From a virus (taxonomy: Duplodnaviria; Heunggongvirae; Uroviricota; Caudoviricetes), in IMG/VR virus record IMGVR_UViG_2795385890_000001: a stretch of 64,000 nt of DNA; one strand, written 5' to 3'. How positions within the stretch are numbered: the first letter of the stretch is position 1; each line of letters opens with the position of its first letter. The notes beneath the pieces are model-generated. The model was not told where the DNA came from. It saw only the letters and a program-made list of their open reading frames with translations, and searched no databases. Positions 9,364 to 41,332 of this stretch are shown piece by piece. The position numbers were made by a program, and so were the translations under genes.

Positions 9364-9390
9364 CACCCAACCCAGAAGGAGAACAGTCCG

Positions 9391-9735
9391 ATGTACGGAA
9401 ACGAACTGCCACCGGGGCTACCGCCCCTATCCGAAACATATGCCAGAGCAGCCAAGTTCGATGTCGCCACCGAACTGATGATCACTACAGTCCTCAAGAT
9501 CGCGGAGAGCGCGGCCGGGAAAATTGAGGCCCTGGCCGAAGAGGGGAAGCTCCCCAAGCGGGCCGCTTACCTGTTGTCCAACGTCGCTGCTAAGGCACAG
9601 GTCGGCGCAGCGTTCGGTGAGAACACGCCGGAGTTCAGGGAAACCATGGTCCGTTTCATGAATGCCGGATGGGTGCCGCCAGTGAAGGATTCAGAGAAGG
9701 GCGCGGCGGACGGAGCGGCGGTGACCCATGGCTGA
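9391..9735 (+). CDS. Hypothetical protein
   Basis: ORF in the + gene train after RBS GAAGGAGAACA. Confidence 0.45.
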   Translation: MYGNELPPGLPPLSETYARAAKFDVATELMITTVLKIAESAAGKIEALAEEGKLPKRAAYLLSNVAAKAQVGAAFGENTPEFRETMVRFMNAGWVPPVKDSEKGAADGAAVTHG

Positions 9736-10102
9736 ACCAGACGAGGACGAGAAGGTAGTTCGCCCCTTCGCCGCCTTCCTACAGGAACTCAACAAGGGCC
9801 GCGTCCATGAAGAGTTGTCCCAAGGTCTCCACGATCTTCTAGCGGCGGTGAAAGCCACCGGCAAGAAGGGCTCCCTCACGCTGACTTTGGTTGTGTCGCA
9901 GGAAAAGAAGACCCCGATGCTGATCATTGACGACGACGTGACGCCCAAGCTCCCGAAGCCGGACCGGACGCGTTCCCTCTGGTTCGTGGACAAGGACGGC
10001 AACCCCACTCGATCCGACCCGAACCAGCTCGATTTCAACTCCATCCAAGCCGTACCCACCCCGGTACCCGCCGAGGACAACACCCGAAAGGAAGCCAACT
10101 AA
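9728..10102 (+). CDS. Hypothetical protein
   Basis: ORF overlaps the upstream stop by 8 nt. Confidence 0.45.
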   Translation: MAEPDEDEKVVRPFAAFLQELNKGRVHEELSQGLHDLLAAVKATGKKGSLTLTLVVSQEKKTPMLIIDDDVTPKLPKPDRTRSLWFVDKDGNPTRSDPNQLDFNSIQAVPTPVPAEDNTRKEAN

Positions 10103-10957
10103 ATGGCATCATTCACCGACACCAGTTCCCGCACGGAGGTCGATGCGACAGCCGACCTCGCCCGGCTGGCCGTTGACCGCGTGGACGCCGTATCACCCGA
10201 TACAGCAGAGGTTTTCACATTCACGGTCCGAAATGACGAGACCCAGCAGTTTCATTCGCTGGAGAAGTACCTGCCGAACCCGCGCCGCCAACGCGGCACC
10301 ACAGCGGTTCTGGATGCGGACAGCCTGAATCTGATCCTGGGTAAGGTCCAGCAGCTCGACGCGCTCGGTTTCGCGGACCGCGCAAGCAACCGGGTGACCG
10401 CGATACTCAATTACGAGGGTTGGGGTGATCACCGGATCGCTCTGCACTTGAAGCACTCTCGTGAGTGGCAGCACTGGTCCCAGCTCGACGGTGAGTTCCT
10501 GCCTCAGGCCAGGTTCGCCGACCACCTCCAGGATGGGCTCTCCGAGATCTACAACCCCCCGGCGGCCGACCTGGTGGAGATTGTGCGGAAGTTTCAGGCC
10601 AAGCGGTCCCTCTCGTTCAAATCGGCACGGGATATCGCCAACGGTGAGGTCCAGTTCGAGTACGTCGAGGAGACCTCGGATGCGGGCGGCGGAACCGCCG
10701 GGACAATCGAGATCCCGCAGGTACTCACGCTGAGGCTCCCGATCTACGAGCGCGGCGCCCGTTACGAACTGCTGGCGCACTTCATGTACCGGCTCGGGCC
10801 GCAGGGCGTCGCGTTCGGATACAAGCTCGACCGGGCACAGGAAGTCGTTGATGCCGCGTTCGACGCCGAGGTCGAGAAAATCACCGACAGCCTGCCCATC
10901 GCGTACGGCCCTGCGCCGGAGCCGGTTCAGCCGTTCAGCAACGAGTACAGCCGGTAG
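10103..10957 (+). CDS. Hypothetical protein (284 aa)
   Basis: Long ORF starting 1 nt after the upstream stop, with protein-like composition. Confidence 0.45.
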   Translation: MASFTDTSSRTEVDATADLARLAVDRVDAVSPDTAEVFTFTVRNDETQQFHSLEKYLPNPRRQRGTTAVLDADSLNLILGKVQQLDALGFADRASNRVTAILNYEGWGDHRIALHLKHSREWQHWSQLDGEFLPQARFADHLQDGLSEIYNPPAADLVEIVRKFQAKRSLSFKSARDIANGEVQFEYVEETSDAGGGTAGTIEIPQVLTLRLPIYERGARYELLAHFMYRLGPQGVAFGYKLDRAQEVVDAAFDAEVEKITDSLPIAYGPAPEPVQPFSNEYSR

Positions 10958-10959
10958 AC

Positions 10960-11172
10960 GTGTCCGCTACCGAACACCATGAGGAAGCCCTGCGTCTCTA
11001 TGAAGAGGCGCAGGGCCTCCCCAAGGCACAGTCCACCCCGCTCATCGCGGAGGCACAGCTCAACGCATCCCTGGCGCTGTACGAGCTGCTAGCGGAATCC
11101 GCGTACAACGCCGGGCCGAACGTCGAGGCCAAAGCCCCGTTCATAGGTGACCCCACATGGAGGACCGAATGA
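10960..11172 (+). CDS. Hypothetical protein
   Basis: GTG-start ORF, alpha-helical composition. Confidence 0.4.
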   Translation: MSATEHHEEALRLYEEAQGLPKAQSTPLIAEAQLNASLALYELLAESAYNAGPNVEAKAPFIGDPTWRTE

Positions 11173-11546
11173 GTCGCCCACGTAAGCAACGGTTCCCGCT
11201 CGCCGCCGTCCTGACCGTCGCCGCCGGGCTACCCGAAGGCGCGCTATGCAAGGTCAGCGAAGTGCAAGCGCTCCTCGGGTTCATGACCGGCGGAACGATC
11301 ACCATCAACCAGGTCCCAAGGGCCAAGGACTTCTGCCAGAAATTCCTCCTAGACCAGCACCGGTTCCTGGACTCGCTCGTACCTGAATCCACCGAAGTGG
11401 AGAAGGTGCGCCGCTGGGGCACCAAGTGTCAGGAGCGCTGGGGCAAGGAAGTGTTGGTAGAAGCGTGCCCCGGGGACGCCTACCAGCATCGCGCCAGCGT
11501 CGATGAACTCCAGCATCTCTGGAGCAGCCGGAAGGCGGCCTCCTGA
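11169..11546 (+). CDS. Hypothetical protein
   Basis: MSRPRKQRFPLAAVLTVAAGLPEG...; ATGA coupling. Confidence 0.45.
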   Translation: MSRPRKQRFPLAAVLTVAAGLPEGALCKVSEVQALLGFMTGGTITINQVPRAKDFCQKFLLDQHRFLDSLVPESTEVEKVRRWGTKCQERWGKEVLVEACPGDAYQHRASVDELQHLWSSRKAAS

Positions 11547-11857
11547 TGCCTGAGTTCGCAGACCTGTTCCCCGGCGCCACCCGCAACGTAGCCAACTACC
11601 GGGGCGACATCGCCGCACACATCCTGGCCGACACCCACCCATTCGGCCCCGACCTACACGGCGCCTACTACGCGCCCGTCTCGGCGGTGTACGACCCGGC
11701 CACCGACCAGACCAAGGTCACGTTCCGCCCGATCCCCCGCCGGCAGCCCACCACCCGGAGACGGGAGCAGCAGCCGTCACCGTTTGGGCTGAACCGGCGC
11801 CAGCGCCGACTACTAGGAGATACCAAGCATGGCAAGCAATCTCGCAGAACTTCTTGA
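11546..11857 (+). CDS. Hypothetical protein
   Basis: ORF start shares one nt with the upstream stop (TGATG). Confidence 0.4.
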   Translation: MPEFADLFPGATRNVANYRGDIAAHILADTHPFGPDLHGAYYAPVSAVYDPATDQTKVTFRPIPRRQPTTRRREQQPSPFGLNRRQRRLLGDTKHGKQSRRTS

Positions 11858-12188
11858 GGTCGGAGCCCGGTACGCGGCGAAAGCTGTCCGCCGCGCCGCA
11901 GACACCATCGAGAACGCCGAGGGCCAGCAGCTCCTCGCGTGGATAACAGGTCTGCGCGCCACCGTCACCCCCGCCGATGAACCGGGAGCCGGGGAGACGA
12001 CGGAGCAGCAGCCAACGGTGGGTGCGGTCATCAAAGTCACCTGCGAGCTGTGCCCTCGCAGCATGGACCAGCTGACCGCCCCGGACACGCTTTGGGTGTG
12101 CCAGGCGTGCGCCATGGGTCATCTGCACTGGGATGGCGTCTCTCGCCATGTGACGCGGACGTACCGGGTGCTGGGGATGTACCCGTGA
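11829..12188 (+). CDS. Hypothetical Cys-rich protein
   Basis: CELCPRS...WVCQACAMGH zinc-ribbon-like motif. Confidence 0.4.
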   Translation: MASNLAELLEVGARYAAKAVRRAADTIENAEGQQLLAWITGLRATVTPADEPGAGETTEQQPTVGAVIKVTCELCPRSMDQLTAPDTLWVCQACAMGHLHWDGVSRHVTRTYRVLGMYP

Positions 12189-12373
12189 AGGTCCAGCTGA
12201 TACGCGGACAAATCACTACCACTGATGGTGTGACCCGCAAGTTCCAGATCGCGCCTCTCGGCTGGATGCAGTGGGGAACCACCGACAAGCAGCTCGGCGA
12301 GACCGTGGATCTGTTGGAGGCGCTGACGCAGGCCGCCGCCGCTCACATCGCCGGGTACGGGGAGCAGCCATGA
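12185..12373 (+). CDS. Hypothetical small protein
   Basis: GTG start overlapping the upstream stop (GTGA); in frame with track ORF 12050..12373. Confidence 0.35.
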   Translation: MKVQLIRGQITTTDGVTRKFQIAPLGWMQWGTTDKQLGETVDLLEALTQAAAAHIAGYGEQP

Positions 12374-12657
12374 ACCCCGAACTGGAAGAAAGGAAATGGG
12401 TCGCCGAGTGCCAGGACTGCCCCACCACCAAGGACGAGGAATACGGCCATGAAGTGAAGGCCACGTGGGAGTTCCCTCGCGGCCGGGAAGGTCTCAAGCA
12501 AGCAGAACGGTTCGCGGTCCGCCACCGCGCTCTGCGCGGGCACAACGTCCAGGTGCTGACTCGCTTGGCCATGACATTCAACCTCTACGACAACCCCGGC
12601 CTGGAGTACCTCCTAGGTCTCGGTGACGCCGGAGACAACATCGGAATCCAGCGATGA
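12370..12657 (+). CDS. Hypothetical protein
   Basis: MNPELEERKWVAECQDCPTTKDEEYGHEVKATWEF...; ATGA coupling. Confidence 0.4.
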   Translation: MNPELEERKWVAECQDCPTTKDEEYGHEVKATWEFPRGREGLKQAERFAVRHRALRGHNVQVLTRLAMTFNLYDNPGLEYLLGLGDAGDNIGIQR

Positions 12658-13127
12658 GCAGCAGCCGCGCGTTCCGCGCCGAGTTTGGCGGCTGGTGCGA
12701 CTACGGCGACGACCCGATCCGGCCCGGCGACGAAGTCCGCTACGACGACGACACCCCTCGTACACACCGCCTGCCCAAACCCAGTAACCCCCACCGACAT
12801 ACGGGACATCTGCCCCAACTGTTGGTGCCAGCACGCAGGAGAATGCGCATGACCGACAGCCCGAAAGTAATAGTGCAGCAGCTCGATTCGAGCATTCTCA
12901 TCGACATCTATCTCGATGGATTCATGACGGGCGCCGCAACCTGCGCGCTCAACTACAGCCAGGACGATGCCGAGGCTGACCGCGTTTCCGAGACTCTCGT
13001 TCGCGCAGTCAAGACAGACCCGGCCGCGATGGAAGAGATACGTCGCGAGGTCCGCGAACGGCTCCTCGGAATCGAAGGTGAGACAAGGAACCTCGACGTA
13101 TTCCACCCGGACTATAAGGAGCGCTGA
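12654..13127 (+). CDS. Hypothetical protein (alternative internal start near 12849)
   Basis: ATGA coupling at the 5' end; an internal ATG (MTDSPKV...) is also preceded by an AGGAG-like RBS. Confidence 0.4.
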   Translation: MSSSRAFRAEFGGWCDYGDDPIRPGDEVRYDDDTPRTHRLPKPSNPHRHTGHLPQLLVPARRRMRMTDSPKVIVQQLDSSILIDIYLDGFMTGAATCALNYSQDDAEADRVSETLVRAVKTDPAAMEEIRREVRERLLGIEGETRNLDVFHPDYKER

Positions 13128-13130
13128 ACA

Positions 13131-13586
13131 ATGGCGACACTCAGAGTGAAACTTGTTCTGGAGGCCGTGATTTGCGACCACTGCGACACGAGCTTCGGTG
13201 TCCCGGTCTGGCTCAGCGGGCACCCGATCCACTGCCCACTCGGGCACCGGAACGAAGGCCGCGAGTTCGAGACGGTGCCGGATACGCCGAACGTTGCTAC
13301 ACCAGAGGGAATCTGGGAAGTGTTGACCGGCGCCGCCGCTGAGGAACTGGAACTGGGCGGCGATGCCGGAAGCGTGGTCGCATGCATTCGAGAGATGTTG
13401 GCCGAGGAAGGGCATGTGGTCGTTCAGGTCCCACGTGTTGCACACAAGGGGCCACGCGATACCGACGCCTCGATGTACGCGGCAGCCGCCGGGCGACTGG
13501 AGCGCGGCTACGGCATAGGTGGCAGCAACCTGACCCGCGCGGTTGCGACACTGCTCAGCTCTGTGGCCGAGGCGGCAGCCCGGTGA
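13131..13586 (+). CDS. Hypothetical zinc-ribbon protein
   Basis: CDHCDTSFG...HCPLGH motif. Confidence 0.4.
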   Translation: MATLRVKLVLEAVICDHCDTSFGVPVWLSGHPIHCPLGHRNEGREFETVPDTPNVATPEGIWEVLTGAAAEELELGGDAGSVVACIREMLAEEGHVVVQVPRVAHKGPRDTDASMYAAAAGRLERGYGIGGSNLTRAVATLLSSVAEAAAR

Positions 13587-13936
13587 GCGCCAACAACTGG
13601 ACTACCTGCTACGCCTGCCAGACCCGGCGTGCCGATGCTAACGACGAACGAATTGCCGAGCAGCGGAAGCTCATCGAAGACGCGTACGGACAGGTGTCAC
13701 AGGAGGAATACGACAGCCTTCGCGGCCGCCTGGAGAGTGCCATTGCAGAGATCGAAGCAGCCCCACTGAGTCAGACCTTCCGCGAAGACTACGAGATCCA
13801 CGGCGCAGAAACCGGTGTCGTAACAGTCAGTTACGGCGGTAGCTGCACCGTATGCGGCTACGGGACAGCGTTCGAGGAACAGCACCCCATCGAGGCCCGC
13901 GAGCTGCACTCCGTGAGAGAGAACCGCCATGGGTGA
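13583..13936 (+). CDS. Hypothetical Cys-rich protein
   Basis: GTG start overlapping the upstream stop. Motifs CYACQ...CTVCGYG. Confidence 0.4.
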   Translation: MSANNWTTCYACQTRRADANDERIAEQRKLIEDAYGQVSQEEYDSLRGRLESAIAEIEAAPLSQTFREDYEIHGAETGVVTVSYGGSCTVCGYGTAFEEQHPIEARELHSVRENRHG

Positions 13937-14867
13937 CAGGACCGGCATCGAATGGACCGATGCCACATGGAATCCCGTAACCGGCTGCGACAAGGTTTCT
14001 CCCGGCTGCGATCACTGCTACGCCGAGACGTTTGCCGAGCGTTGGCGCGGCACGCCGGGGCACTACTTCGAGAGCGGGTTCGATGTGCAGCTGCGACCGG
14101 ACAAGCTCGACTTGCCCCTGCGCTGGACCAAACCGCGCAAGGTGTTCGTCAACTCGATGTCAGACCTGTTCCACGACAAGGTGCCTGACGAGTACATAGC
14201 CCGCGTGTTCGCCGTCATGGCCCTCGCGCCACGACACACTTTCCAGCTGCTAACCAAACGCCACGGCCGCATGCACGCGCTCCTCGGATCTGAGAGGTTC
14301 CCGGGCCTCGTGTACATGGCCATCAACGCACTGCTGGAACACGGTAACCCGCTCCACATCAACGATGTGGCGATCATGGCGGCACTCGACGGCTTCTCTC
14401 GGGGGCGGTTCAAGGTGCTACCCAACGTCTGGTTGGGCGTGAGCGCCGAGGATCAGAAGCGCGCCGACCTACGCATTCCGGCCCTGCTGGATACCTCGGC
14501 AGCCGTGCGGTTCGTCAGCGCCGAGCCGCTCCTCGGGCCGCTGGACATCGCGCGGTTCGCTGAGCACGATGACGCCAAGTACGACGTGCCACCTCTCAGC
14601 TGGGTGATAGTTGGCGGCGAATCCGGTCCTGGCGCAAGGCCGATGCATCCCGAATGGGCTCGCTCGCTACGCGATCAGTGCGTAGCCGCTGGCGTGCCGT
14701 TCCTGTTCAAACAGTGGGGCGAGTGGACACCGAACACAGGACATCAGTACCGGGATTGGGCCAATCTCAGTGATCCCCATGCGTTCGTCATGCGCGTCGG
14801 CAAGAGGCGCGCCGGGCGGGAGCTGGATGGGCGCACATGGGACCAATACCCAGGGGCGGTTGCGTGA
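13929..14867 (+). CDS. Phage Gp37/Gp68-family protein (DUF5131)
   Basis: N-terminus IEWTDATWNPVTGCDKVSPGCDHCYAETF is the hallmark of the Gp37Gp68 family. Confidence 0.6.
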   Translation: MGDRTGIEWTDATWNPVTGCDKVSPGCDHCYAETFAERWRGTPGHYFESGFDVQLRPDKLDLPLRWTKPRKVFVNSMSDLFHDKVPDEYIARVFAVMALAPRHTFQLLTKRHGRMHALLGSERFPGLVYMAINALLEHGNPLHINDVAIMAALDGFSRGRFKVLPNVWLGVSAEDQKRADLRIPALLDTSAAVRFVSAEPLLGPLDIARFAEHDDAKYDVPPLSWVIVGGESGPGARPMHPEWARSLRDQCVAAGVPFLFKQWGEWTPNTGHQYRDWANLSDPHAFVMRVGKRRAGRELDGRTWDQYPGAVA

Positions 14868-15508
14868 TGACGACTGTCTGGTTCGTCTCCGACCTACATA
14901 TCGGGCACGCGCTCGTCGCTGTGATCCGGGCAGAGCGCGCCGGTATCGCCCTGCCGGCCAACCCTGTGGATCGGCAACTCGCGGCTATCGAGTGGCATGA
15001 CCAGACCTTGGCGGAGAAGTGGGATGCCATCGTTCACCCCGGAGACCAGGTATGGGATCTGGGGGACAACAGCTCTGGAACCAACACCGCCCAGATGAAG
15101 TCTCTTGCGTGGCTGTACCAGAGGCCGGGCGAGAAGCACCTGGTTCCGGGTAACCATGACCGGTGCCACCCGATGTACCGCGACGCCCACAAGTGGCAAC
15201 GCGACTACCTCCAGGTGTTTCAGTCGGTGCAGCCGTTCGCGCGGCGCCGTATCGGCGGCCGAACCGTTCTCATGTCGCATCTGCCTTACCTGGGCGACCA
15301 CACCACCGCTGAGCGGTACAACCAGTACCGGCTCCGCGATGAAGGCGCATGGCTTCTCCACGGCCATACCCACAGCACCGCAAGCTATCTGCCGTACGTA
15401 CACCAGCGTCAGCTCCATGTCGGAGTGGATGCCTGGAACCTAGCGCCAGTCGGTATCGACACCCTCGCAGAAGGCATCGAGTTCCTTGAACGGGGTGATG
15501 CGTCGTGA
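14867..15508 (+). CDS. Calcineurin-like metallophosphoesterase
   Basis: Phosphoesterase motifs VSDLHIGH, GDxxD(LGDN), GNHD, GHTHS. ATG shares a base with the upstream TGA. Confidence 0.65.
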   Translation: MTTVWFVSDLHIGHALVAVIRAERAGIALPANPVDRQLAAIEWHDQTLAEKWDAIVHPGDQVWDLGDNSSGTNTAQMKSLAWLYQRPGEKHLVPGNHDRCHPMYRDAHKWQRDYLQVFQSVQPFARRRIGGRTVLMSHLPYLGDHTTAERYNQYRLRDEGAWLLHGHTHSTASYLPYVHQRQLHVGVDAWNLAPVGIDTLAEGIEFLERGDAS

Positions 15509-15990
15509 ACGCCGCCGATGTGCTTGCCGCGCTGCGTAAACACCACCGGGACGCTGCGCTAGTACCCGAAGTGGTGATACACGATGACCACCCAATCTGG
15601 GCTGAGCTGCCCGATGGGCATGGGCAGCCCTACACACGCCGGATAGACGCGCTGATGTTCGACAGCTTGGAACGCACCGCGATTGAGATCAAAGTCTCCA
15701 AAGCCGATGCCGCAAAGGAGACCTGGGAAAAGGTCCAACCGTGGCGCCGGGTGTGCCACAGATTTGTGTATGCGGTACCGGCTGGGCTCATAGAGCATCC
15801 GCCTGTCTACGGGTGCGGGCTGTGGTGGATCCACGACCCGACCCCTTTGTATCCGCATGGTCGCGTCGAGGTGCGCCGCAAAGTCTCGATCAACAAGACA
15901 CCTGAGCAGTTGCCACAGCACGTAATACAGGCCCTCGCGTACCGGGCGGCGGGCGTAGCGAGCATCAAGAGAGCGGGGAATACACCATGA
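15505..15990 (+). CDS. Putative PD-(D/E)xK-fold nuclease-like protein
   Basis: RIDALMFDSLERTAIEIKVSKAD has a D...E-x-K arrangement. GTG start coupled to the upstream stop. Confidence 0.4.
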   Translation: MNAADVLAALRKHHRDAALVPEVVIHDDHPIWAELPDGHGQPYTRRIDALMFDSLERTAIEIKVSKADAAKETWEKVQPWRRVCHRFVYAVPAGLIEHPPVYGCGLWWIHDPTPLYPHGRVEVRRKVSINKTPEQLPQHVIQALAYRAAGVASIKRAGNTP

Positions 15991-16409
15991 CCGACACCCC
16001 TCCAATGCCGGTAAGACTGGATGGCCGCGTGACCGTATCCGAGGGAGAGCTAGCCAACTTGGTTCGGCTGCTGCGCGAGACGGTGGACGACTCATGGCTG
16101 GCGGTCAACTTCAAGCCGGACTACGGCGCTGGCCAGACCAAGAAGATCGATACGAAAGCGGCTCAAGCTCTTGCGATCTCGCTCCTACAGCGGATCAATT
16201 CCACGCGCCTCGGGCACGCCGAGGGCACCGTCGCTACCCATGGGGATGGGCGGCTCGCCCGCCGCTACTACTCGGACGCTGAGCAGCGGTTGACATGGCT
16301 CGTGGTCCAGCCGCCGAGCGACAAGCGGGTGGAAGTCGAAAGTGGTCCCGAGCTCCCCGGCCTCGGCTGGAAAGTCCGCGACGACAAGCCGTGGCAGGTA
16401 GTCCGGTGA
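15987..16409 (+). CDS. Hypothetical protein
   Basis: ATGA-coupled ORF. Confidence 0.45.
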   Translation: MTDTPPMPVRLDGRVTVSEGELANLVRLLRETVDDSWLAVNFKPDYGAGQTKKIDTKAAQALAISLLQRINSTRLGHAEGTVATHGDGRLARRYYSDAEQRLTWLVVQPPSDKRVEVESGPELPGLGWKVRDDKPWQVVR

Positions 16410-17113
16410 CCGCCTACACGTTCAACGTTGAGCCGCCCAAGCACGGCTCGCACATCGAGTTCTACGCGGAGGAGCGGGGGTGCCTGCCGGCCACACCGAA
16501 CCTGGAGCGCGCGAGCCTCCAGAACGCGGTGTTGTTCGGCGGCCCTGCGGTGCGGCGCTGCCTGGAGCAAGCCCCGATTGTCGGTGATCACAAGCACGTG
16601 TTCGTGGACACGAAGGTATCCCTGCTACTGCCGGGTTTCATCCCGGCGATACCGGGCTGGCACACCGATGGCGTTCCACGTCTCCACACCGTGACGGAGA
16701 AGGTCGGTTCACCGTTCAACGCTGGCCCTCCATCTATGAACGCTCAGGGCGCCCAAGAGGCGAAGGGGTACCGGCCCCGGTTCCACACCATCCATGTCGG
16801 AAACCACTGCCCAACAAGGTTCATGCGCAAACCGTGGGTCATTGACCTGGAACATGGCGAGGACTCGGGCCTGTATCGCGAACTGTCTCAAAAGGTTGAG
16901 AGCGCGCCATATTCCGAGCGAGGCGCGTATCTGGATTCTCCGCTGGAGCAGTGGCTTTCGTGGAGTTGGTGGAACGTCCACACCGCGACGCCTGCGGATT
17001 GGCGTGGATGGCGGCTCCTCATCCGGGTGACGGAATCAGACCAGCCCCCGTTGGATTCGGGATTCATCCGGTCCCAGACGCAGGTGTACGTACCCACGGA
17101 GTTCGGCTGGTGA
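16406..17113 (+). CDS. Hypothetical protein with HxD...H motif (possible cupin / 2OG-Fe(II) dioxygenase-like fold)
   Basis: IPGWHTDGVP (HxD) and FHTIHVGNH downstream could form a 2-His-1-carboxylate metal site. GTG start coupled to the upstream stop. Confidence 0.35.
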   Translation: MTAYTFNVEPPKHGSHIEFYAEERGCLPATPNLERASLQNAVLFGGPAVRRCLEQAPIVGDHKHVFVDTKVSLLLPGFIPAIPGWHTDGVPRLHTVTEKVGSPFNAGPPSMNAQGAQEAKGYRPRFHTIHVGNHCPTRFMRKPWVIDLEHGEDSGLYRELSQKVESAPYSERGAYLDSPLEQWLSWSWWNVHTATPADWRGWRLLIRVTESDQPPLDSGFIRSQTQVYVPTEFGW

Positions 17114-17141
17114 ACAACAACAAGACGGAAGGGGAGCGGTA

Positions 17142-18080
17142 GTGCCTCGCGAGTACGGGCGTATGTGGTTCTCGATGTGGACCGATGAGGACTTCTGCGC
17201 GCAGGAGGTGTTCGACAAGCTCCTGTTCTGTGTGCTGATCGCACAACCGGCCATGAACTACGCCGGGGTGCAGCCGATCAACATGCGGCGCTGGCGGAAG
17301 GCCCTTCGCCAGCGCGGGCGCATACCCCAGGAGTCCGCCGTCGAGGAGGCCCTGGTCCGGCTGGAGCGCAGCCGGTACGTGTTCACCGACGAGGACACCG
17401 GGGAGACCTTGGTGCGGTCGTTCATGCGCCGAGACGAGGTCGGAAAGCAGCCCAACGTGATGCTGTCCGCGCTCCGCTCGGCGGCCCATGTGGAGTCGCC
17501 GAAACTCGCGTATGTCCTCGCCGGGGAACTGGAGCGGGTACCGCTGCCCTCCATCGCGGGCGAAAGCCCGAAGGCGTTGAAGCTCCGTGACAACTTGAAG
17601 CGGGCACACGCGGAAGCGTTGGCGCACTTGGGAACCCTTACCCAAGGGTTATCGGAACCCTTTCCTGAACCCTTTGGAGAAGGCTTTGATGAAGGGTTAC
17701 CGGAAGGGTTCACGCCACCTGGGGAAATGGAACCCTTCCCAAAACCCTTTGGAGAAGGGTTCGCGTCAGGGTCGGGTCAGGGTGAGGGTCAGGGTGTTAT
17801 CTCACCTTCCGTAGGTACCTGGTTTGGGGAGCGCTCCGCGCCGCCCCCCGAATTCTGCCCAAAGCACCCCGGCGGCACCGACGACCCGTGCCGCGCATGC
17901 CAGCGCCACCGAGAACGCCGCGAAGCCTGGGACGCCGAACGCCCCGCCCGTGAGAAAGCCGAACGCCGCGCCCGCATCGCCGCCTGCACCGAATGCGGGG
18001 GACGCGGCTGGATCGACAACGACCACGACAGCCTCCGCCGCTGCCAATGCAACCCCGAAGCACCCAAGGAGTCCGCATGA
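17142..18080 (+). CDS. Module protein A1: N-terminal DNA-binding-like domain, repeat-rich linker, C-terminal double CxxC zinc ribbon (paralog of 22296..23240)
   Basis: About 35-40% identical to A2 along its length (DEDTGETLVRSFMRRD / DEDTEELLVRSYIRND; CPKH...CTECGGRGWI / CPKH...CTRCQGGGWI). Linker PFPEPFGEGFDEGLPEGF... encoded by AACCCTT/AAGGGTT repeats. Confidence 0.55.
   Translation: MPREYGRMWFSMWTDEDFCAQEVFDKLLFCVLIAQPAMNYAGVQPINMRRWRKALRQRGRIPQESAVEEALVRLERSRYVFTDEDTGETLVRSFMRRDEVGKQPNVMLSALRSAAHVESPKLAYVLAGELERVPLPSIAGESPKALKLRDNLKRAHAEALAHLGTLTQGLSEPFPEPFGEGFDEGLPEGFTPPGEMEPFPKPFGEGFASGSGQGEGQGVISPSVGTWFGERSAPPPEFCPKHPGGTDDPCRACQRHRERREAWDAERPAREKAERRARIAACTECGGRGWIDNDHDSLRRCQCNPEAPKESA
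17637..17770. repeat. Array of 8 short direct/inverted repeats AACCCTT / AAGGGTT inside gene A1 (iteron-like)
   Basis: GGAACCCTTTCC, TGAACCCTTTGG, GAAGGGTTACC, GGAAGGGTTCAC, GGAACCCTTCCC, AAAACCCTTTGG, GAAGGGTTCGC plus CCAAGGGTTATC within about 130 bp. Confidence 0.5.
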
Positions 18081-18721
18081 CGAGCTACCCCACGAACATG
18101 ACCCTGCGCCCGATCACCGCCTGGCCGCACCAGCTCACCCAGGAACGCCGCCGCTCGAACTTCTCCGCGCAGTGGAGCGAAACCCTCAACCTGCTCGACC
18201 GGGAACTCTGGTATCTCGGGAGCGGCAGGCAGAACGCGTCAGCCGTCCTCCAGATCGCGATGCGTGAGCAAGACTTCCGCATGGACGGGATGCCCCGCGC
18301 CACAGCCAAACCCGAGCACCCCGGCGTCATCCTGAACGTCGAATCCCGCACAGGGCCACTGTCGTTCCCCTGCGACACCTTCACCAACTGGCAGGACAAC
18401 CTCCGCGCCATCGCCCTCGCGCTCGAAGCGCTCCGCAAGGTGGACCGTTACGGCGTCACCCAAACCGGGCAGCAGTACGCCGGGTGGAAGCAACTCCCTT
18501 CCGCAGGAGCTCCAGCCCCCGGAGGCCAATCCGCCGATGACGCTGAACTCCACCTCCGGCTTGCCGCTGGCGACAAAAATTCGCCGCTCGACAAGGTCTA
18601 CCGAGCCGCACGAGCTAGAGCCCACCCGGACCGCAACAGCGGGGACCGTTCCGCGTGGGACGCCGTCGAGGCCGCCGCTGCCGTGCTCCGCGCCTTCGGG
18701 CGCCTCCAGGACCAGCGGTGA
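18077..18721 (+). CDS. J-domain (DnaJ-like) protein
   Basis: C-terminus KVYRAARARAHPDRNSGDRSAWDAVEAAAAVLRAF has the J-domain helix II-HPD-helix III signature. ATGA-coupled. Confidence 0.5.
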   Translation: MTSYPTNMTLRPITAWPHQLTQERRRSNFSAQWSETLNLLDRELWYLGSGRQNASAVLQIAMREQDFRMDGMPRATAKPEHPGVILNVESRTGPLSFPCDTFTNWQDNLRAIALALEALRKVDRYGVTQTGQQYAGWKQLPSAGAPAPGGQSADDAELHLRLAAGDKNSPLDKVYRAARARAHPDRNSGDRSAWDAVEAAAAVLRAFGRLQDQR

Positions 18722-18894
18722 ACGCCCGCGACGAGGTCTGCGCCGGCAGCGGCAAGGTCCCGCTCACCCGACCGCGCAAAGGCCGCGCCTACTGCCCCAC
18801 CTGTCAGCGCTCGTACCGCATCCGCCGCGACGGCGTTATGCCACTCCACCAGAAGCAACGACCCAACCAACCAGCAGCCAAGGAGAACCGATGA
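18718..18894 (+). CDS. Small zinc-ribbon protein (58 aa)
   Basis: CAGSGKV...CPTCQRSY; GTG start coupled to the upstream stop. Confidence 0.35.
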   Translation: MNARDEVCAGSGKVPLTRPRKGRAYCPTCQRSYRIRRDGVMPLHQKQRPNQPAAKENR

Positions 18895-19505
18895 GCACCA
18901 CCACAGGACCGAACAACCACCGATGGCTGCGGAAGTGGCTCCGGCTGGAACCCCACCAGCCCATCGGCGCCGAAGGCGAACCCCCATACCTGCTGCGCTG
19001 GTACGTGATCCCGAGGAACCGCTGGCTGAACGTCTACCTCCACAAGTTCCTACGCGACGACGAAGACCGCGCCCTACACGATCACCCGTGGTGGTTCGTT
19101 TCCATCGTCCTGCGGGGCAGCTACACCGAAATGACACCCACCGGTGAGCGCCGCCGCCGCGCCGGTTCCGTCGCCTTCCGCCCGGCCAAGTGGCGGCACC
19201 GGGTCATCCTCGACAAGACCCTCCAGGAAGTCGGCGAGCTCGAAGCGGGCGGTCGGAGGCCACCGCGCGTGCGGCTATGGAACACCGGGCGCATCCCCTG
19301 CTGGACCCTGATCATCACCGGGCGGCGGAGGCGGCTCTGGGGATTCTGGTGCCGCCGACTGGTTGACACATGGTCAGCGGAAACCTACGACGATCGGGAC
19401 AGGATCGTCGCCTCCACTGACGGTCAGGTCGAGGTCGAACGATTCATCCCGTGGGATGAGTTCGGGGCCGCCGGATGCGGTGAGCCGGTCAGGAGCGACC
19501 GATGA
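18891..19505 (+). CDS. Hypothetical protein with conserved LHDHPWWF motif
   Basis: MSTTTGPNNHRWLRKWLR...LHKFLRDDEDRALHDHPWWFVSIVLRGSYTE; ATGA-coupled. Confidence 0.45.
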   Translation: MSTTTGPNNHRWLRKWLRLEPHQPIGAEGEPPYLLRWYVIPRNRWLNVYLHKFLRDDEDRALHDHPWWFVSIVLRGSYTEMTPTGERRRRAGSVAFRPAKWRHRVILDKTLQEVGELEAGGRRPPRVRLWNTGRIPCWTLIITGRRRRLWGFWCRRLVDTWSAETYDDRDRIVASTDGQVEVERFIPWDEFGAAGCGEPVRSDR

Positions 19506-19735
19506 CCCAGCCGACCCACGAAGGCGCCAGCGCCGCGCCGGAGGCCATACAAACCGCCTTCCAGGAAGGGATCGACCTCGGGCTGCAACTGGCGCGTCTG
19601 TCGCTCTCCGACGTAGCCGACTACGAGGAGACCGCCGAGGACGGCGGACCGGTCATCGCCGACCGGCTGCGCAAGTACGTGACCGTCCTATCCTCGATGC
19701 CCACGACCTACCCGCCCTACGCCGGGGCTCAATGA
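19502..19735 (+). CDS. Hypothetical small acidic protein
   Basis: ATGA-coupled ORF. Confidence 0.4.
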   Translation: MTQPTHEGASAAPEAIQTAFQEGIDLGLQLARLSLSDVADYEETAEDGGPVIADRLRKYVTVLSSMPTTYPPYAGAQ

Positions 19736-20142
19736 TGGTGGAACGGTTGTCGGAGGCTCGGATTCAGGCGCTCATTGCCTCAGAGCTGCCAGAACTGAAC
19801 GGGCAGTTCCAAGGCCATCGAACCGGATGCCAGTGCGCCGCACACTATGACGGACCATGCCCGAACGCCGCCGTCTACGTGATTGAGGCCCACGCGACCG
19901 ATGAATGCAAGGGCGACGGCGTCAACGAGTTCGGCAACTGGGTGATCTTCATGTGCCATGAATGCGCTACCCAAATGGTCATCAAAATCTGCATGGACGT
20001 AGCTTCACGCGGCCTCCACGCGATTCTCACAGGTCGCGATGAATCCCTGCGCTGCGAAACATGCGAAGCGCCGATAAGGAACCACCGGGACATCTTGCGT
20101 TCGGTACGCCCGTACGAGGAGGTGTTCCCTGATGGAGCGTGA
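19732..20142 (+). CDS. Module protein B1 (Cys-rich; paralog of 23434..23838)
   Basis: Shares ..LN.QF.G.R..CQ...H.C..P...V...H..D.C.G....EFGN.V....C..CA.....C..C.AP...I.R.VR.YEEVF with B2. Confidence 0.5.
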   Translation: MMVERLSEARIQALIASELPELNGQFQGHRTGCQCAAHYDGPCPNAAVYVIEAHATDECKGDGVNEFGNWVIFMCHECATQMVIKICMDVASRGLHAILTGRDESLRCETCEAPIRNHRDILRSVRPYEEVFPDGA

Positions 20143-20365
20143 CTGGACACCAGAACAGTTGGGGCTCTGGCGGATACGGAAATCCTTGAAGGGGGAGCGC
20201 CCGCCGTGGCCTGAGCTGCCCCCACTACCCGGCGTCATTCCGACACCCCGTTGGTGGATATGGCGGCCCGGCCAGCTGAAACCCATGGCCGCGTTCGATT
20301 CCCAGCCTGACGCACTCGGCTGCGTCTACGACATCCTGGCGATAGAGAGCAGGAGAAAGACGTGA
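20132..20365 (+). CDS. Module protein C1 (paralog of 23828..24145)
   Basis: RDWTPEQLGLWRIRKSLKGERPPW vs REWTPEQLKRWRIRKAQNGEQTPW in C2. Confidence 0.45.
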   Translation: MERDWTPEQLGLWRIRKSLKGERPPWPELPPLPGVIPTPRWWIWRPGQLKPMAAFDSQPDALGCVYDILAIESRRKT

Positions 20366-21264
20366 CCGCAATGGTATTGGTCGCACTCGCCGCCTTGGCG
20401 CTGGTCGTGTTGTGCAACGTTGCATGGCTCCTCGTCTGGAGCCGGAAGCGTGACAACCCCGGTCCGAACCGGGTTCAGGTGGCTGGCGACAACTCCACAC
20501 AGATATCCGGCACCAACATCACCATCACCGCCGTGAACGGCTCCCTCGCTGCCCACACCATCGACGGCGCCGTCACGATCGGCCAAGGGCAGGCTTCGAC
20601 ATCTCCGCTCAGGGCTGGAATCACGCGGGATGGCCGGTGCTGGGAACAGGCACCCGCATGTGCGTGTGGTTCAGAAGCGTGCCGTGGGCATCCGTCAACG
20701 ATTCAACCTGCCCTCGTTACCAATTTGTACGCCAAGAGCCTCCAGGAGGCTCTCGCCCGAGGCCCGAACGGGCTCGCCAAATCCGACACGATTCGCCCCC
20801 AGACACCGTGGGAACGGCAGCTCGCGGAACAGCAGGAAGGACCCCCGCACTTGGATGACCGCCCCGGACTGGCGGCCATCCTCGCTGGCCTGTACCGAGT
20901 CCAAAGTATCGCGGCCACTTTGAAGATGGGACCAGCCGTCCAGCACGTAGGTGAGCTTCCTGCTGGTCTGTCCTTGAAAGACAAGAACACCTTGTTCTAC
21001 GACGAGACTGAGCGGTGCGGATACCTCTGGACCGGTACACGTTTCGTTATCGAGGGTGCCGAGGCCAGACCTGAGCAACCAGCACCACCCGAGTTCCTAC
21101 TCGGCTACGCCAGCCCCATCCCGGTACGTGAGTTCAAAGCCACCTGCAGCTGCCCTCGCTGCGGCTGGGTGGATGCCCACTACCTCCACACCATAGACCT
21201 GCCCGAAGGCGCCACCATCGGCCGCGAATGCACCAACTGCAAAATGCAGTGGGGTGAGAAATGA
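20362..21264 (+). CDS. Module protein D1: N-terminal TM helix, QISGxNxTITA..GSxAAHTI segment, C-terminal CxCPRCG zinc ribbon (paralog of 24142..24753)
   Basis: Conserved blocks with D2: (V)GDNS.QI.G..ITI.A..GS.AAHTI.G.V and C(S/A)CPRCG....HY....REC..C...W. Confidence 0.5.
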   Translation: MTAMVLVALAALALVVLCNVAWLLVWSRKRDNPGPNRVQVAGDNSTQISGTNITITAVNGSLAAHTIDGAVTIGQGQASTSPLRAGITRDGRCWEQAPACACGSEACRGHPSTIQPALVTNLYAKSLQEALARGPNGLAKSDTIRPQTPWERQLAEQQEGPPHLDDRPGLAAILAGLYRVQSIAATLKMGPAVQHVGELPAGLSLKDKNTLFYDETERCGYLWTGTRFVIEGAEARPEQPAPPEFLLGYASPIPVREFKATCSCPRCGWVDAHYLHTIDLPEGATIGRECTNCKMQWGEK

Positions 21265-21695
21265 TCGCCCACACCCCGGATTCAATCTGGCTGGAACGCA
21301 ACGGGAAACGGTGGCCTATATCCTTCAACCTCTTCTATCAGAAGGATGAACTACCGACTCTCGTCCTGCTTGACACCCTCCACCCCGGAGATCGGATAGA
21401 GCTACCAGGCATCACCACAGAGAGGCCCGCTTGGGTCGATGTTGGAGTTTGGCCCCCTGGTTCTCCTGAGGGTGACAGCGGTTGGTTCATGAGGAAGACG
21501 CATCCATATCGAATCCCGATGGTGTTCAACTCGTTTGACACCTGCCCCGCCTGCGCGACGGAAACAGTCCACCTCATCGAGGTGCCCGAACTCGAAAGAT
21601 TCTGCGACACCGGCTGGGGCGGATGCCCGGTGCGCCGGTATCTCCTTCGCACCTGCATCACCTGTGCCAATTCATGGGAACAGGAGGCCACGTGA
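21261..21695 (+). CDS. Module protein E1 (zinc-binding; paralog of 24750..25202)
   Basis: Shared RNGK(R/K)WPI.F.L......L.DTLHPGD...LP...T......VWPP......W.(M/A)RKTHPYRI....F.(S/A)FDTCP.C......E.P.......RRY.LRTCITC.NSWEQ. Confidence 0.5.
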   Translation: MIAHTPDSIWLERNGKRWPISFNLFYQKDELPTLVLLDTLHPGDRIELPGITTERPAWVDVGVWPPGSPEGDSGWFMRKTHPYRIPMVFNSFDTCPACATETVHLIEVPELERFCDTGWGGCPVRRYLLRTCITCANSWEQEAT

Positions 21696-21916
21696 GCCTT
21701 TCAGTCGATCTAACGGTAAACGGGCTACTGGTCGGTCACGTGGACATCAAGTGCGTTGAGTGGAGCGATTACACGGACACCCGAGGCTACGAATATTCCG
21801 TGACTAGCAGCGACCGAGCGGAACCGGCATCCGGGAGGGTCGATCACTACCACCGCGACGGCGCCCTCGCACTCGTGCACAAGGTGCTCGCCGACTACCT
21901 CGGGGTGAGTAAATGA
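21692..21916 (+). CDS. Hypothetical protein
   Basis: GTG start overlapping the upstream stop; in frame with track ORF 21623..21916. Confidence 0.35.
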   Translation: MSLSVDLTVNGLLVGHVDIKCVEWSDYTDTRGYEYSVTSSDRAEPASGRVDHYHRDGALALVHKVLADYLGVSK

Positions 21917-22293
21917 GCCCACAACGTATCCAGCGGAAACGAGTCAAGGGCTGGAACAAACCAGAAGGCGCCATCATCGTCACCAGGCCGTCCCGATGGG
22001 GCAACCCGTTCAAGGTCGTACCCGCAGGAACAGAGCCCGGCCTATTCAGCCGCCGCCGCGAACGGGTCTGGACCGTCGAGGGTCCCGGAACGTTTTTCCA
22101 GGGCACCGGGACACGTGAATGGGCAGCCGCCTACGCGGTGCGGCTTTACCGCCGCTGGCTCCTCGGCTCCATGAAGCGCGTGGAGGACCTGGTGCCACTT
22201 CTCCGAGGCCACGACCTCTGCTGCTGGTGCCGACTCGACGCCCCCTGCCACGCGGACGTCCTACTAGAACTAGCCAACCAGAAGGAGATATAG
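21913..22293 (+). CDS. DUF4326-family phage protein
   Basis: RPSRWGNPF...LRGHDLCCWCRLDAPCHADVLLEL matches the conserved DUF4326 core. Confidence 0.5.
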   Translation: MSPQRIQRKRVKGWNKPEGAIIVTRPSRWGNPFKVVPAGTEPGLFSRRRERVWTVEGPGTFFQGTGTREWAAAYAVRLYRRWLLGSMKRVEDLVPLLRGHDLCCWCRLDAPCHADVLLELANQKEI

Positions 22294-22295
22294 CT

Positions 22296-23240
22296 GTGCC
22301 GCGCGACCATGGTCGGATTCTGACAATCATATGGCGGGACAAAGACTTTCAGCAGCGATCCGTCGAGGCGCAGCGCATGTACATGCTCCTGTTGTCGCAA
22401 CCGAATGTGAACAATGCCGGTGTCCTGCCGCTGCAACTAAGCAAGTGGGCGAAGGGCTGCGACCAGACCAGCGTCGCCGATGTACGCCGCGCTACAAACG
22501 AACTCGCCGAGCACCTCTATGTGGCATACGACGAGGACACCGAGGAACTGCTGGTCCGCTCGTACATACGCAACGACGGCGTGCTCAAGCACAAATACCT
22601 GTTCGCTAACGCTCTGAAATGCGCCCAGGCCGTCGAATCACCCAGCCTGCGTGCGGTGCTGGCGGCCGAGTTGCGGCGCACCCGTCGTGCCGATGCGGTG
22701 ACGGTCGCCAACCAGATCGACCCATCTGGCCCCGGGCCAGACGGCACCCCGACTGACCCAAGGCCGGACGACGACCCAACGCCCCCAGACAGTGACCTCG
22801 ACGGCATTTCGATGCCATCCGAAACCGACCCCAATGGCATCGAAAACCCATCGCAATCCGATGTGCCATTGGAATGCCATTCCGATGGCATCGCGATCAC
22901 TAGGGGGAAGGGGAAGGGGAGGGGGAAGGGGTCACCTTGGGTAGGTGGTTACGTTGGGGAGGCGCCCACCCGCTGCCCCAAGCACATCAACGACCCGCAC
23001 CCCCCAAACTGCCGCGACTGCATGACAGTCCGACTGGCATCCGAGGCAGCCGCCCAGGAGACAGCTGAACGTCAGAAGTCAGACCGGGCAGCAGCGCTAG
23101 CCCGACGCGAGGCGTGCACCCGCTGCCAGGGCGGCGGCTGGATCGAGGCCGACGACGGTTCCGGCGTCCTGCCCTGCACGTGCCGTAAACCCCTACAGCT
23201 CGTCCCACGACCCACCGACGACCAGAGGGTGGCCGGATGA
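22296..23240 (+). CDS. Module protein A2 (paralog of A1 17142..18080)
   Basis: See A1. GTG start 3 nt after the upstream stop. Linker PSETDPNGIENPSQSDVPLECHSDGIAITRGKGKGRGKG is encoded by ATGCCAT/ATGGCAT repeats. Confidence 0.55.
   Translation: MPRDHGRILTIIWRDKDFQQRSVEAQRMYMLLLSQPNVNNAGVLPLQLSKWAKGCDQTSVADVRRATNELAEHLYVAYDEDTEELLVRSYIRNDGVLKHKYLFANALKCAQAVESPSLRAVLAAELRRTRRADAVTVANQIDPSGPGPDGTPTDPRPDDDPTPPDSDLDGISMPSETDPNGIENPSQSDVPLECHSDGIAITRGKGKGRGKGSPWVGGYVGEAPTRCPKHINDPHPPNCRDCMTVRLASEAAAQETAERQKSDRAAALARREACTRCQGGGWIEADDGSGVLPCTCRKPLQLVPRPTDDQRVAG
22797..22895. repeat. Array of 6 short inverted repeats (A)TGCCAT / ATGGCA(T) inside gene A2 (iteron-like), followed by a GGGGAAGGGGAAGGGGAGGGGGAAGGGG run
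   Basis: ACGGCATTTCGATGCCATCC, CAATGGCATCG, GATGTGCCATTGGAATGCCATTCCGATGGCATCG. The position matches the A1 repeat array, but the repeat sequence is different. Confidence 0.5.
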
Positions 23241-36852: not shown

Positions 36853-37065
36853 TCCGCTTCCCGCCCCGCGCCGCGTCAACCCGGTACCGCTGATACTGCC
36901 GGTAAGCGCGCGACCCCAGGTTCGCCGCGTGCTCGGCGCCAGGGTCACCAGGTACGCCACCACATCGCCGCCCGGCCTGTCGGGCGGGTGGTACGCCGAT
37001 GCCCAGGACGCCCCAACTCCTTGGGGGTGAGGGCGCGCTGCGCCGCGCTGGCGGGAAGCCCCAGG

Positions 37066-37077
37066 CCGGTGCACCGG
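37066..37077. promoter_or_regulatory. 12-bp palindrome CCGGTGCACCGG; second copy of the core (CCCGGTGCACC) at 37145-37155, both upstream of the late operon start
   Basis: Two copies of the GGTGCACC palindrome about 80 bp apart in the 335-bp non-coding gap before the gene at 37188. Confidence 0.35.
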
Positions 37078-37187
37078 GCCGCCATTTGCCCTCGCGTGGA
37101 ACAAGCTGGGCAGCTATCGCGTCACGGCCGAACGGGTAACTAGGCCCGGTGCACCCTAAACATGTTGTTACGCAGGGAGATACACGC

Positions 37188-41152: not shown

Positions 41153-41301
41153 CGCTGAAACGCCCTGTACGCCCCCGTGCCACAGAGGACCGATGACACC
41201 CAACTCCCCACAAACGGCCGTCTCAGGGCCAACCAGAGGGGTAAGGGGCCTCCGAAACTTCAAACGCCCAGCCGAGGCCCATGCCGCCCGGCTTGTGTCC
41301 T

Positions 41302-41310: not shown

Positions 41311-41332
41311 GACGAAAGTTGACGGAATCCAC

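Follow-up and report, generated by a model that had tools for sequence, protein, structure and literature searches.

Phased repeat arrays inside the initiator genes of an actinobacterial phage family as candidate replication origins

Do the short repeats packed into the middle of two paralogous phage genes belong to the peptides that these genes encode or to the DNA itself and, if to the DNA, what reads them? The question arises from a 64,000-nucleotide stretch of DNA from a tailed virus (Caudoviricetes; IMG/VR record IMGVR_UViG_2795385890_000001), hereafter the window, whose genes A1 and A2 match a family annotated as replication initiators. A preliminary description, made from the letters of the window and their open reading frames, had proposed that each gene carries an iteron-like array and that the two genes form two pairs of initiator and origin. 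The analysis reported here demonstrates that the arrays are selected as DNA and not as peptide, as shown by codon choice, independence of reading frame, orthologues, about 30 homologues and versions that lie outside the initiator frame. Judged by comparison across genomes, the arrays are also shown to be a family-wide feature that is tied to the N-terminal domain (N-domain) of the initiator and persists when it is not translated in the initiator frame. We consider it likely that each array comprises the iterons of a phage replication origin located inside its initiator gene and served by that initiator. The genes and arrays concerned are the following.

17142-18080, plus strand: gene A1, 312 amino acids, with a predicted winged-helix N-domain, a disordered linker and a Cys-rich (zinc-ribbon-like) C-terminal domain (C-domain)
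22296-23240, plus strand: gene A2, a paralogue of A1, 314 amino acids, with its likely start at GTG 22296
17631-17765, no strand assigned: A1 iteron array, ten 12-bp units with the core GAACCCTTC or its complement GAAGGGTTC
22800-22892, no strand assigned: A2 iteron array, six 9-bp odd palindromes with the consensus GATGSCATC at a spacing of ~11 bp

Repeat arrays in the linker DNA of A1 and A2

The heptamer AACCCTT, counted on both strands of the whole window, occurs nine times, and all nine copies fall within 17633-17761 (129 bp), with starts at 17633, 17644, 17656, 17668, 17692, 17704, 17731, 17743 and 17755. A degenerate tenth copy, AAGGCTT at 17680, fills a gap in this series. The array had thus been recognized correctly in the preliminary description, but its count of eight copies at 17637-17770 gives way to nine exact copies and one degenerate copy. 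Start-to-start spacings of the exact copies are 11, 12, 12, 24, 12, 27, 12 and 12, and their orientations read +-++--++-. Shuffled versions of the window contain a mean of 2.65 copies scattered over 64 kb, and a scan of every 7-mer in the window, on both strands and in 150-nt windows, places the A1 array at rank 1 among all clusters. The extended nine-mer, GAA-CCC/GGG-TTC, is palindromic except for its central triplet, and plus and minus copies have similar flanks. The array DNA encodes residues 164-207 of A1 and includes the lowest 40-nt G+C content of the gene (45%).

The A2 array is smaller and built on a different core. Its six 9-mers start at 22800, 22811, 22833, ~22862, 22873 and 22884 (spacings 11, 22, ~29, 11 and 11). 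An array at 22797-22895 had been noted before with six copies of ATGCCAT/ATGGCAT; the array is real, but only four copies are exact (22812, 22834, 22874 and 22885), and two are degenerate by one mismatch each, namely 22801 (ACGGCAT) and 22863 (GTGCCAT). In the 7-mer scan this array is joint second in the window, tied with one other four-copy cluster. Its copies occupy frames 0, 1, 0, 2 and 1, that is, all three reading frames. Taking an iteron-type array to be at least three short phased sites in or near an initiator gene, A1 supplies ten units at 12 bp and A2 supplies six at ~11 bp.

Mixed orientation of the copies had been put forward as the hallmark of a protein-binding array, an argument that we do not retain. 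The sites are quasi-palindromic, and their orientation patterns are not conserved among homologues: the Gordonia soli locus reads -++++++- and Gordonia phage Jambalaya +++-++, while the copies of the group of loci represented by L007 are all direct. The A2 site, GATG-S-CATC, is an odd palindrome, and its ‘orientation’ therefore resides in the central base only, which flips between orthologues.

Arrays selected as DNA across the initiator family

Codon usage within the A1 array departs from that of the genome. GAA (33% genome usage) serves for all eight Glu residues, TTT (7%) for four of seven Phe, TTA (1%) for two Leu and GGG (15%) for five of nine Gly; the log-probability of codon choice is -0.71 per codon in the array, compared with -0.38 in the remainder of the gene. 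Synonymous resampling, in which the protein is held fixed and codons are redrawn from genome usage, yields a mean of 0.54 and a maximum of 4 copies of the A1 motif in 3000 resamples, against nine observed, and a mean of 0.37 and a maximum of 3 copies of the A2 motif in a further 3000, against four observed. A generic statistic, the maximum 7-mer cluster, also separates A1 (0 of 2000 resamples reach the observed value) and fails to separate A2, for which 264 of 2000 resamples reach 4 and the motif-specific test alone discriminates.

Comparisons among close relatives point the same way. Across five relatives of A1 (92-97% identical), 3 of 63 core positions are variable, all of them in one copy, compared with 19 of 72 spacer positions (Fisher test, p = 8e-4). 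Third codon positions vary at 1 of 19 sites in the cores and at 89 of 256 in the rest of the gene (p = 0.009). None of the three 3' sites varies among ten A2 orthologues, some of which have a perfect GATGGCATC in place of the degenerate first site, and another site changes its central base from G to C; changes between orthologues shift degenerate sites towards the consensus. At the DNA level, the recurrent tripeptides of the A1 linker, EPF (GAA-CCC-TTC) and EGF (GAA-GGG-TTC), are the same nine letters read in frame from opposite strands. Copies of AACCCTT in GAL1, Portcullis and P1312 are distributed over all three frames, with 11- or 8-bp spacing.

The arrays extend well beyond the window. 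A tblastn search finds homologues in 254 phage records (Mycobacterium 118, Gordonia 114, Arthrobacter 16, Rhodococcus 4, Thermobifida 1, Corynebacterium 1), many of them annotated as replication initiation protein or RepA-like replication initiator (SEA-PHAGES). In a separate homologue search the N-domain alone gave no matches, and the full-length protein did. A homologue occurs in 1 of 72,556 plasmids, at 40700-41563 of NZ_CP079864.1, a 49-kb non-mobilizable ‘plasmid’ of Mycobacterium sp. SMC-2 that may be an extrachromosomal phage. About 30 lineages were inspected, and a scan of genome contigs gave seven loci.

By the preliminary description, an absence of such repeats from the homologues of other phages would have refuted the proposal; the survey does not show this. 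When each gene is scanned with 1.5 kb on either side, the strongest 7-mer cluster falls in the linker zone in 20 of 25 lineages, a zone that makes up 9.5% of the DNA scanned (binomial, 1e-16, for lineages that are not independent). AACCCTT arrays are present in Gordonia phages Jambalaya, Portcullis, Phlop and GAL1, in Thermobifida phage P1312, Arthrobacter phage Mufasa8 and Corynebacterium phage Bran, and in prophage-like loci of two Rhodococcus, Mycolicibacterium canariasense and Gordonia soli. Each locus holds 5-13 copies, with none outside the gene in 11 motif-carrying loci, and the spacings pooled from ten lineages are exactly 12 bp in 40 of 69 cases and 11 bp in six. Other lineages carry other cores in the same place, including AAGGGAT(C), GGGWCCC, TAACCCC, AAGCCTT, AACCGTT and GGAACAG.

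The core follows the N-domain family and not the C-domain. AACCCTT is seen with at least three different C-domains, and the loci L043-L048, in which another N-domain is joined to an A1-type C-domain, contain different repeats. The same core occurs in both N-domain subtypes, and close relatives can differ, as prophiT36-1 has GGGACCC and M. canariasense AACCCTT. The earlier idea that each paralogue has its own repeat therefore holds within the window but not beyond it, as the A1 motif is common to phages and prophages of at least six genera (Gordonia, Rhodococcus, Mycolicibacterium, Thermobifida, Arthrobacter and Corynebacterium). A further observation concerns GATC, which lies within the repeat core in CaptainKirk2, JuJu and Archis (L062-L064, 1982-2111) and in the L043 group (L043, 2987-3020), with AAGGGATC and GGGATCAAGGG. 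Many phages with GATC cores have a DNA methyltransferase gene a few genes upstream of the initiator, a combination that hints at methylation control of the origin.

Three Arthrobacter phages, Brent, LeeroyJ and Mufasa8, remove the array from the initiator frame altogether. Their initiator consists of the N-domain only and ends in a stop codon, with the array directly after it. The regions are these.

1972-2290 of locus L075: Arthrobacter array region
2053-2353 of locus L087: Arthrobacter array region
2044-2303 of locus L088: Arthrobacter array region

In Brent and LeeroyJ the array occupies an annotated non-coding gap of 260-300 bp, and in Mufasa8 a small ‘hypothetical’ coding sequence (1947-2255) in a different frame, probably spurious, is annotated over it. 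The Mufasa8 array contains 5 + 7 units of GAACCCTTC/GAAGGGTTC at exactly 12 bp, and the Brent array at least ten GAAGACCCTTC/GAAGGGGTC units at a spacing of 12 or 24 bp. These arrays are followed by 7-8 nt tandem repeats, A/C-rich or AT-rich, where the coding versions have a G-rich tract, and in Brent and LeeroyJ the tandem tract is followed by the same CTCACCT box that follows the tract in A1 and A2. Taken together, the codon, frame, orthologue, homologue and out-of-frame tests best support the core of the earlier proposal, in which the repeats are protein-binding sites at the level of the DNA that make up an origin within the initiator gene, as for lambda O, and the low-complexity linker tolerates the constraint.

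Flanking elements, initiator proteins and genome context

Closer examination of the DNA 3' of the arrays highlights two additional elements in each gene.

17766-17795, plus strand: A1 G-rich, C-poor hexamer tract TCAGGGTCGGGTCAGGGTGAGGGTCAGGGT, read as SGSGQGEGQG, which fits the G-quadruplex consensus
17799-17819, plus strand: A1 conserved box ATCTCACCTTCCGTAGGTACC with a TCACCT core, ~5-10 nt beyond the tract
22903-22931, plus strand: A2 G-rich tract GGGGGAAGGGGAAGGGGAGGGGGAAGGGG, read as RGKGKGRGKG
22932-22955, plus strand: A2 conserved box TCACCTTGGGTAGGTGGTTACGTT, with one variable position in 11 sequences

The plus strand of the window contains only two motifs of four G runs of three or more separated by 1-7 nt, and these are the tracts 3' of the A1 and A2 arrays. 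Across orthologues, 1 of 35 positions of the A1 tract varies, and 0 of 11 third positions (p = 0.018). The codon test is modest for the A1 tract (excess of G over C of 12 against a mean of 6.4, p ~0.03) and strong for the A2 tract (20, whereas 5000 resamples average 8.3 and reach at most 19), in which all five Gly codons are GGG (15% usage) and both Arg codons AGG (8%). A2 orthologue tracts differ by one GGGGAA unit. The notion of a purely DNA-driven G-quadruplex motif had to be tempered, as 18-32% of synonymous resamples also yield the motif; it is partly a by-product of the peptide, because x-Gly repeats make GGG at codon junctions. The excess of G over C, taken over 36 nt, peaks for the whole locus at the tract position in 16 of 26 lineages, and the peptides read from the tracts are very unlike one another (GQGEGQG, KGKGRGKG, RVRVGVR, VEVGV, GVGVGV).

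The box, with the consensus (A/T)TCTCACCT...GTA(A/G)(G/C)T, stands 3' of the tract; the consensus is placed at 17799-17819 in A1 and 22932-22946 in A2. TCACCT is found at the box position in 13 of 30 lineages, against 5% expected, the non-coding Brent and LeeroyJ versions included. In A1 and A2 the box is read as Ser-Pro in the rare codons TCA (12%) and CCT (9%); box equivalents are also seen at ~2300-2320 of L087 and ~2255-2275 of L088. Part of the CTCACCT box presumably resembles the 3' end of 16S rRNA. The G-rich tract and the CTCACCT box after each array, newly described here, would be candidate further elements of an origin.

At the protein level, both paralogues match phrog_3171 (‘replication initiation protein’), A1 over residues 1-308 with an E value of 1.3e-83 and A2 with 6.3e-70; the initiator name of this family rests on annotation. 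Pfam scans of A1, A2 and several C- and N-domains return nothing above the cut-off. For Phage_rep_O there is no match to A1 or A2, for which no Pfam family reaches the cut-off, and for RepA_N (PF06970) there is no sequence match at E up to 1, only chance-level matches below the cut-off. A profile search of the Protein Data Bank with the N-domain alignment gives nothing meaningful. An AlphaFold2 model of A1 computed from 62 sequences has a mean pLDDT (predicted local distance difference test) of 84.9, with a confident N-domain (1-170) and C-domain (232-305). Residues 198-230 fall below 50, and the linker is predicted to be disordered; the G-rich tract and box encode the residues that follow the array, up to ~226. 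The modelled N-domain of the A1 family comes closest to a RepA_N plasmid initiator, whose fold it appears to resemble. The model contains no AAA+ domain. The C-domain is placed as follows.

17835-18077, plus strand: A1 C-terminal domain (CPKHP...CRAC ... CTEC...CQC), confidently modelled as a helix (251-280) and a hairpin

This domain is presumed to be a module that recruits the host replisome. The A1-type N-domain bears at least three unrelated C-domains (the A1 type, the P1312 type and the GAL1/Thimann/Sbash type) and, conversely, the unrelated N-domain of L043-L048 (MRIRSIKPEFW...) is joined to the A1-type Cys-rich C-domain. Shuffling of domains at the linker, with the A1-type N-domain next to at least two other C-domains, is seen in L068, L072, L083, L089 and L090. 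Gordonia phage Thimann has an annotated helicase loader gene after its initiator gene.

How did two such genes come to lie in one genome? The window, with ~65% G+C, is collinear from its first base with the M. abscessus prophage prophiGD43A-5 (MW584167), with aligned parts 92-96% identical, and M. abscessus entries include a protein with exactly the A1 sequence. The A2 region is 96% identical in nucleotides to the prophiGD43A-5 region that holds gp36. The mechanical open reading frame of A2 starts at 22119; its start is taken as GTG 22296 because the annotated orthologue gp36 begins there, and the Arg/Pro-rich upstream extension of 59 codons (22119-22295), which overlaps the preceding gene, is probably not translated. 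One block of the window, which starts with A1, has no counterpart in the prophage.

17117-21947, plus strand: A1-carrying block missing from prophiGD43A-5 (blastn against MW584167)

Contig L085 (75 kb), which comes from a different M. abscessus sample, matches window positions 9142-22278 at 99.8% identity; its A1 and array are identical to those of the window, after which it diverges and has an unrelated 333-aa gene in the place of A2. ProphiGD43A-5 thus carries A2 only and L085 carries A1 only, and the viral contigs with close A1 orthologues (n = 5) do not overlap with those with close A2 orthologues (n = 10). A1-only and A2-only phages thus exist, and the phage of the window is a mosaic. It looks as if a recent mosaic recombination brought A1 and A2 together, at a junction near 22278, beside a shared DUF4326 gene. 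As sequence, the two proposed initiator/origin pairs stand, with both genes and both arrays intact; their pairing in one genome looks like a recent join.

Genes between A1 and A2 have no replication-related PHROG matches, and phages of the A1/A2 type therefore probably rely on host replisome proteins. The genes just upstream of A1 and A2 in the window are of unknown function (16295-17113, phrog_1843, and 21913-22293, DUF4326), and many Gordonia and Mycobacterium phages (L062, L063, L067, L073, L074, L076, L089, L090) have an HNH or other endonuclease gene directly upstream of the initiator. Elsewhere in the window, at 37064-37080 and 37144-37157, the palindrome GGCC(C)GGTGCACC(GGGCC) occurs twice, ~80 bp apart; its GGTGCAC cluster is the one that shares second rank with the A2 array among 7-mers. 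The region, which appears intergenic and immediately precedes ATG 37189, may be an operator or terminator. GC skew at 1-kb resolution across the window gives no evident origin-type switch.

Candidate origins, alternatives and known systems

If the arrays are iterons of origins, the following sequence of events can be envisaged. The winged-helix N-domain of A1 would bind the 9-bp sites GAACCCTTC, 12 bp apart, and that of A2 the 9-bp palindromes GATGSCATC, ~11 bp apart. On about ten closely phased sites, initiator molecules would assemble into an oligomer along roughly one side of the helix. Duplex opening, or the placement of a host factor, might then occur at the neighbouring G-rich tract, with its short period and strand asymmetry, and at the CTCACCT box, and the Cys-rich C-domain would bring in the host helicase or primase. 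Binding, the identity of the binding protein, unwinding and firing at the arrays are steps that we infer from sequence.

Several observations weigh against an origin served by its own initiator. Neither the A1 nor the A2 array has a separate AT-rich unwinding element beside it; such an element had been suggested as something to look for, and no classical one is present. DnaA-box matches are at chance level, not enriched. The surveyed lineages are not phylogenetically independent, 5 of 25 are without a clear exact-heptamer array, and the motifs were picked from the same data on which they were evaluated, which makes the motif-specific statistics post hoc. The AACCCTT core is common to N-domains that are only 25-40% identical, which is odd for a private specificity and therefore leaves room for a shared host factor as the reader. 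Literature searches yielded no binding or replication data for any member of the phrog_3171 family, no mapped origin for it and no prior description of these arrays.

What else could the arrays be? It is unlikely that they are initiator-binding sites for autoregulation, copy control or incompatibility (by titration or handcuffing), with the origin elsewhere in the genome. Plasmid iteron arrays also act in control and handcuffing (PMC5397158), and the arrays here lack an adjoining AT-rich unwinding element. However, the non-coding Arthrobacter versions have iterons and then an A-rich tandem tract, which is the classic layout, the 64-kb window holds no other comparable repeat cluster, and in the two best-studied analogues the array within the gene is the origin. 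We likewise judge it improbable that the N-domain is not the reader and that the repeats are read by a host protein or another phage protein, or form a partition centromere, a packaging signal or a bend. Such a reader would fit the identical AACCCTT across both N-domain subtypes and several host genera, and ParR-type centromeres are typically phased at 11-12 bp. Yet the array invariably adjoins the end of this N-domain and is absent from the rest of the loci, relatives with another N-domain carry other repeats, no partition genes are adjacent, and the motif differs between close lineages (A2, Llij, CaptainKirk2).

A feature of the peptide, in which a low-complexity E-P-F/E-G-F linker makes, for example, acidic-Pro-Phe contacts with the replisome and the symmetry of the DNA is incidental, is very improbable. 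EPF/EGF-like peptides recur in many homologues, and the copies of the A1 subfamily are nearly all in one frame; the rare codons and resampling tests nevertheless largely refute it, the copies of A2, GAL1, Portcullis and P1312 are spread over three frames, spacer residues vary freely while third positions of the cores do not, and the arrays of the Arthrobacter phages persist past a stop codon. Barely credible, in our estimate, is an mRNA hairpin or DNA cruciform that regulates translation or transcription of the initiator. The A1 region does fold better than its shuffles (z -2.9, with 1 of 200 shuffles as good), but the A2 region does not stand out in this respect (z -1.1), no Rfam family was matched between 16.5 and 24 kb, and pairing partners change from homologue to homologue along with the orientation patterns. 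Unconserved orientations and the unremarkable folding of the A2 region led us to reject the RNA hairpin. Neutral products of slippage or template switching in a tolerant linker would account for the change of the G-rich tract by whole GGGGAA units between orthologues and for the widely varying linker length; we give this explanation hardly any credence, since the same heptamer and 12-bp phase recur across several genera at 25-55% protein identity and cores are better conserved than spacers.

An origin inside its initiator gene is an arrangement already known from lambda O and from staphylococcal RepA_N plasmids, and probably present here in an actinobacterial phage family. In pSK41 the Rep protein recognizes four Rep boxes in the middle of the rep gene, and the origin DNA codes for the central linker of the protein. 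The C-domain, which is specific to the host, interacts with DnaG, and the module of N-domain plus origin has been swapped in nature, as in pPR9 (PMC5703833). RepA_N initiators (pSK41 Rep, pTZ2162 RepA, pAD1 RepA) resemble A1 and A2 in their variable C-domain, probably in their winged-helix N-domain (predicted by model for A1 and A2) and origin-encoded linker (putative for A1 and A2), and in the swapping of N-domain and origin modules, seen in pPR9 there and in L043-L048, GAL1, P1312 and L083 here. Differences are also apparent. A1 and A2 have no Pfam RepA_N sequence match; their family belongs to phages of high-GC Actinobacteria and is almost absent from plasmids, whereas RepA_N is found in Firmicutes plasmids; and in contrast to the four Rep boxes of pSK41, about ten 9-bp sites at 11-12 bp are followed here by a G-rich tract.

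Lambda iterons are ~19 bp each, and lambda O binds DNA with its N-domain and recruits the helicase loader with its C-domain. The lambdoid origin sits in the middle of O; its 4-6 iterons, themselves inverted repeats, are followed in lambda by a clear AT-rich region, and their number varies, with extra iterons adding residues to the O linker (PMC7466680). Lambda O with ori-lambda and the variants in Stx phages are thus similar to the present arrays in the mid-gene position of the origin, the inverted-repeat iterons and the varying linker length. They are set apart by the 9-bp sites found here, by the absence of an AT-rich stretch from the coding versions (an A-rich tandem tract is present in the non-coding Arthrobacter versions) and by the Phage_rep_O family, which does not match A1 or A2. 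Replisome organizers of Firmicute phages with internal origins (SPP1 gene 38/oriL, TP901-1, r1t, Tuc2009) differ in protein family, hosts and repeat layout, with no sequence relationship detected. Bacterial oriC regions contain 9-bp DnaA boxes ~11 bp apart, in either orientation, beside a short-period tract (DnaA-trios) that the initiator binds in single-stranded form. Iterons followed by a hexamer-period, strand-asymmetric tract are alike by analogy only; the A1 protein is unrelated to DnaA, and its model has no AAA+ domain. Cluster A mycobacteriophages encode a RepA (Miko, Jeeves; Wetzel et al., 2020) that is related to the pMSC262-type plasmid Rep and serves extrachromosomal prophage maintenance; the origin was concluded to lie within or next to repA, and the authors saw no repeats (PMC7157519). 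These proteins, too, are phage-encoded initiators in Mycobacterium and are set apart from A1 and A2 by description; none of the cluster A phages of that study is among the listed A1/A2 homologue matches.

A tentative and more far-reaching reading, which we regard as doubtful, is that of a distinct origin design in phages of high-GC Actinobacteria. In such a design, about ten 9-bp quasi-palindromes at 11-12 bp, with the core GAACCCTTC across genera, would be joined by a G-rich tract and a CTCACCT box that replace the AT-rich element; the tract might act as a DnaA-trio-like single-strand track for an initiator filament, or as an R-loop or G-quadruplex opener driven by transcription of the initiator gene. 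It is possible, though again doubtful, that on this reading the whole origin could either be translated as a linker or be left non-coding.

To return to the reading that we prefer, iterons of an origin in each initiator gene, the arrays provide precise candidate origins of ~200 bp each for a family found in cluster F mycobacteriophages, in common M. abscessus prophages and in many phages of Gordonia, Rhodococcus and Arthrobacter. The phage of the window is a natural case of two such initiator/origin modules in one genome. If this reading is true, the modules would offer compact and possibly mutually compatible replicons for Mycobacterium and related genera, and the arrays would serve as landmarks for engineering therapeutic phages without breaking an origin hidden in coding sequence. 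They would also illustrate dual coding with particular clarity, the sequence of a peptide (EPF/EGF) being set by DNA-binding sites.

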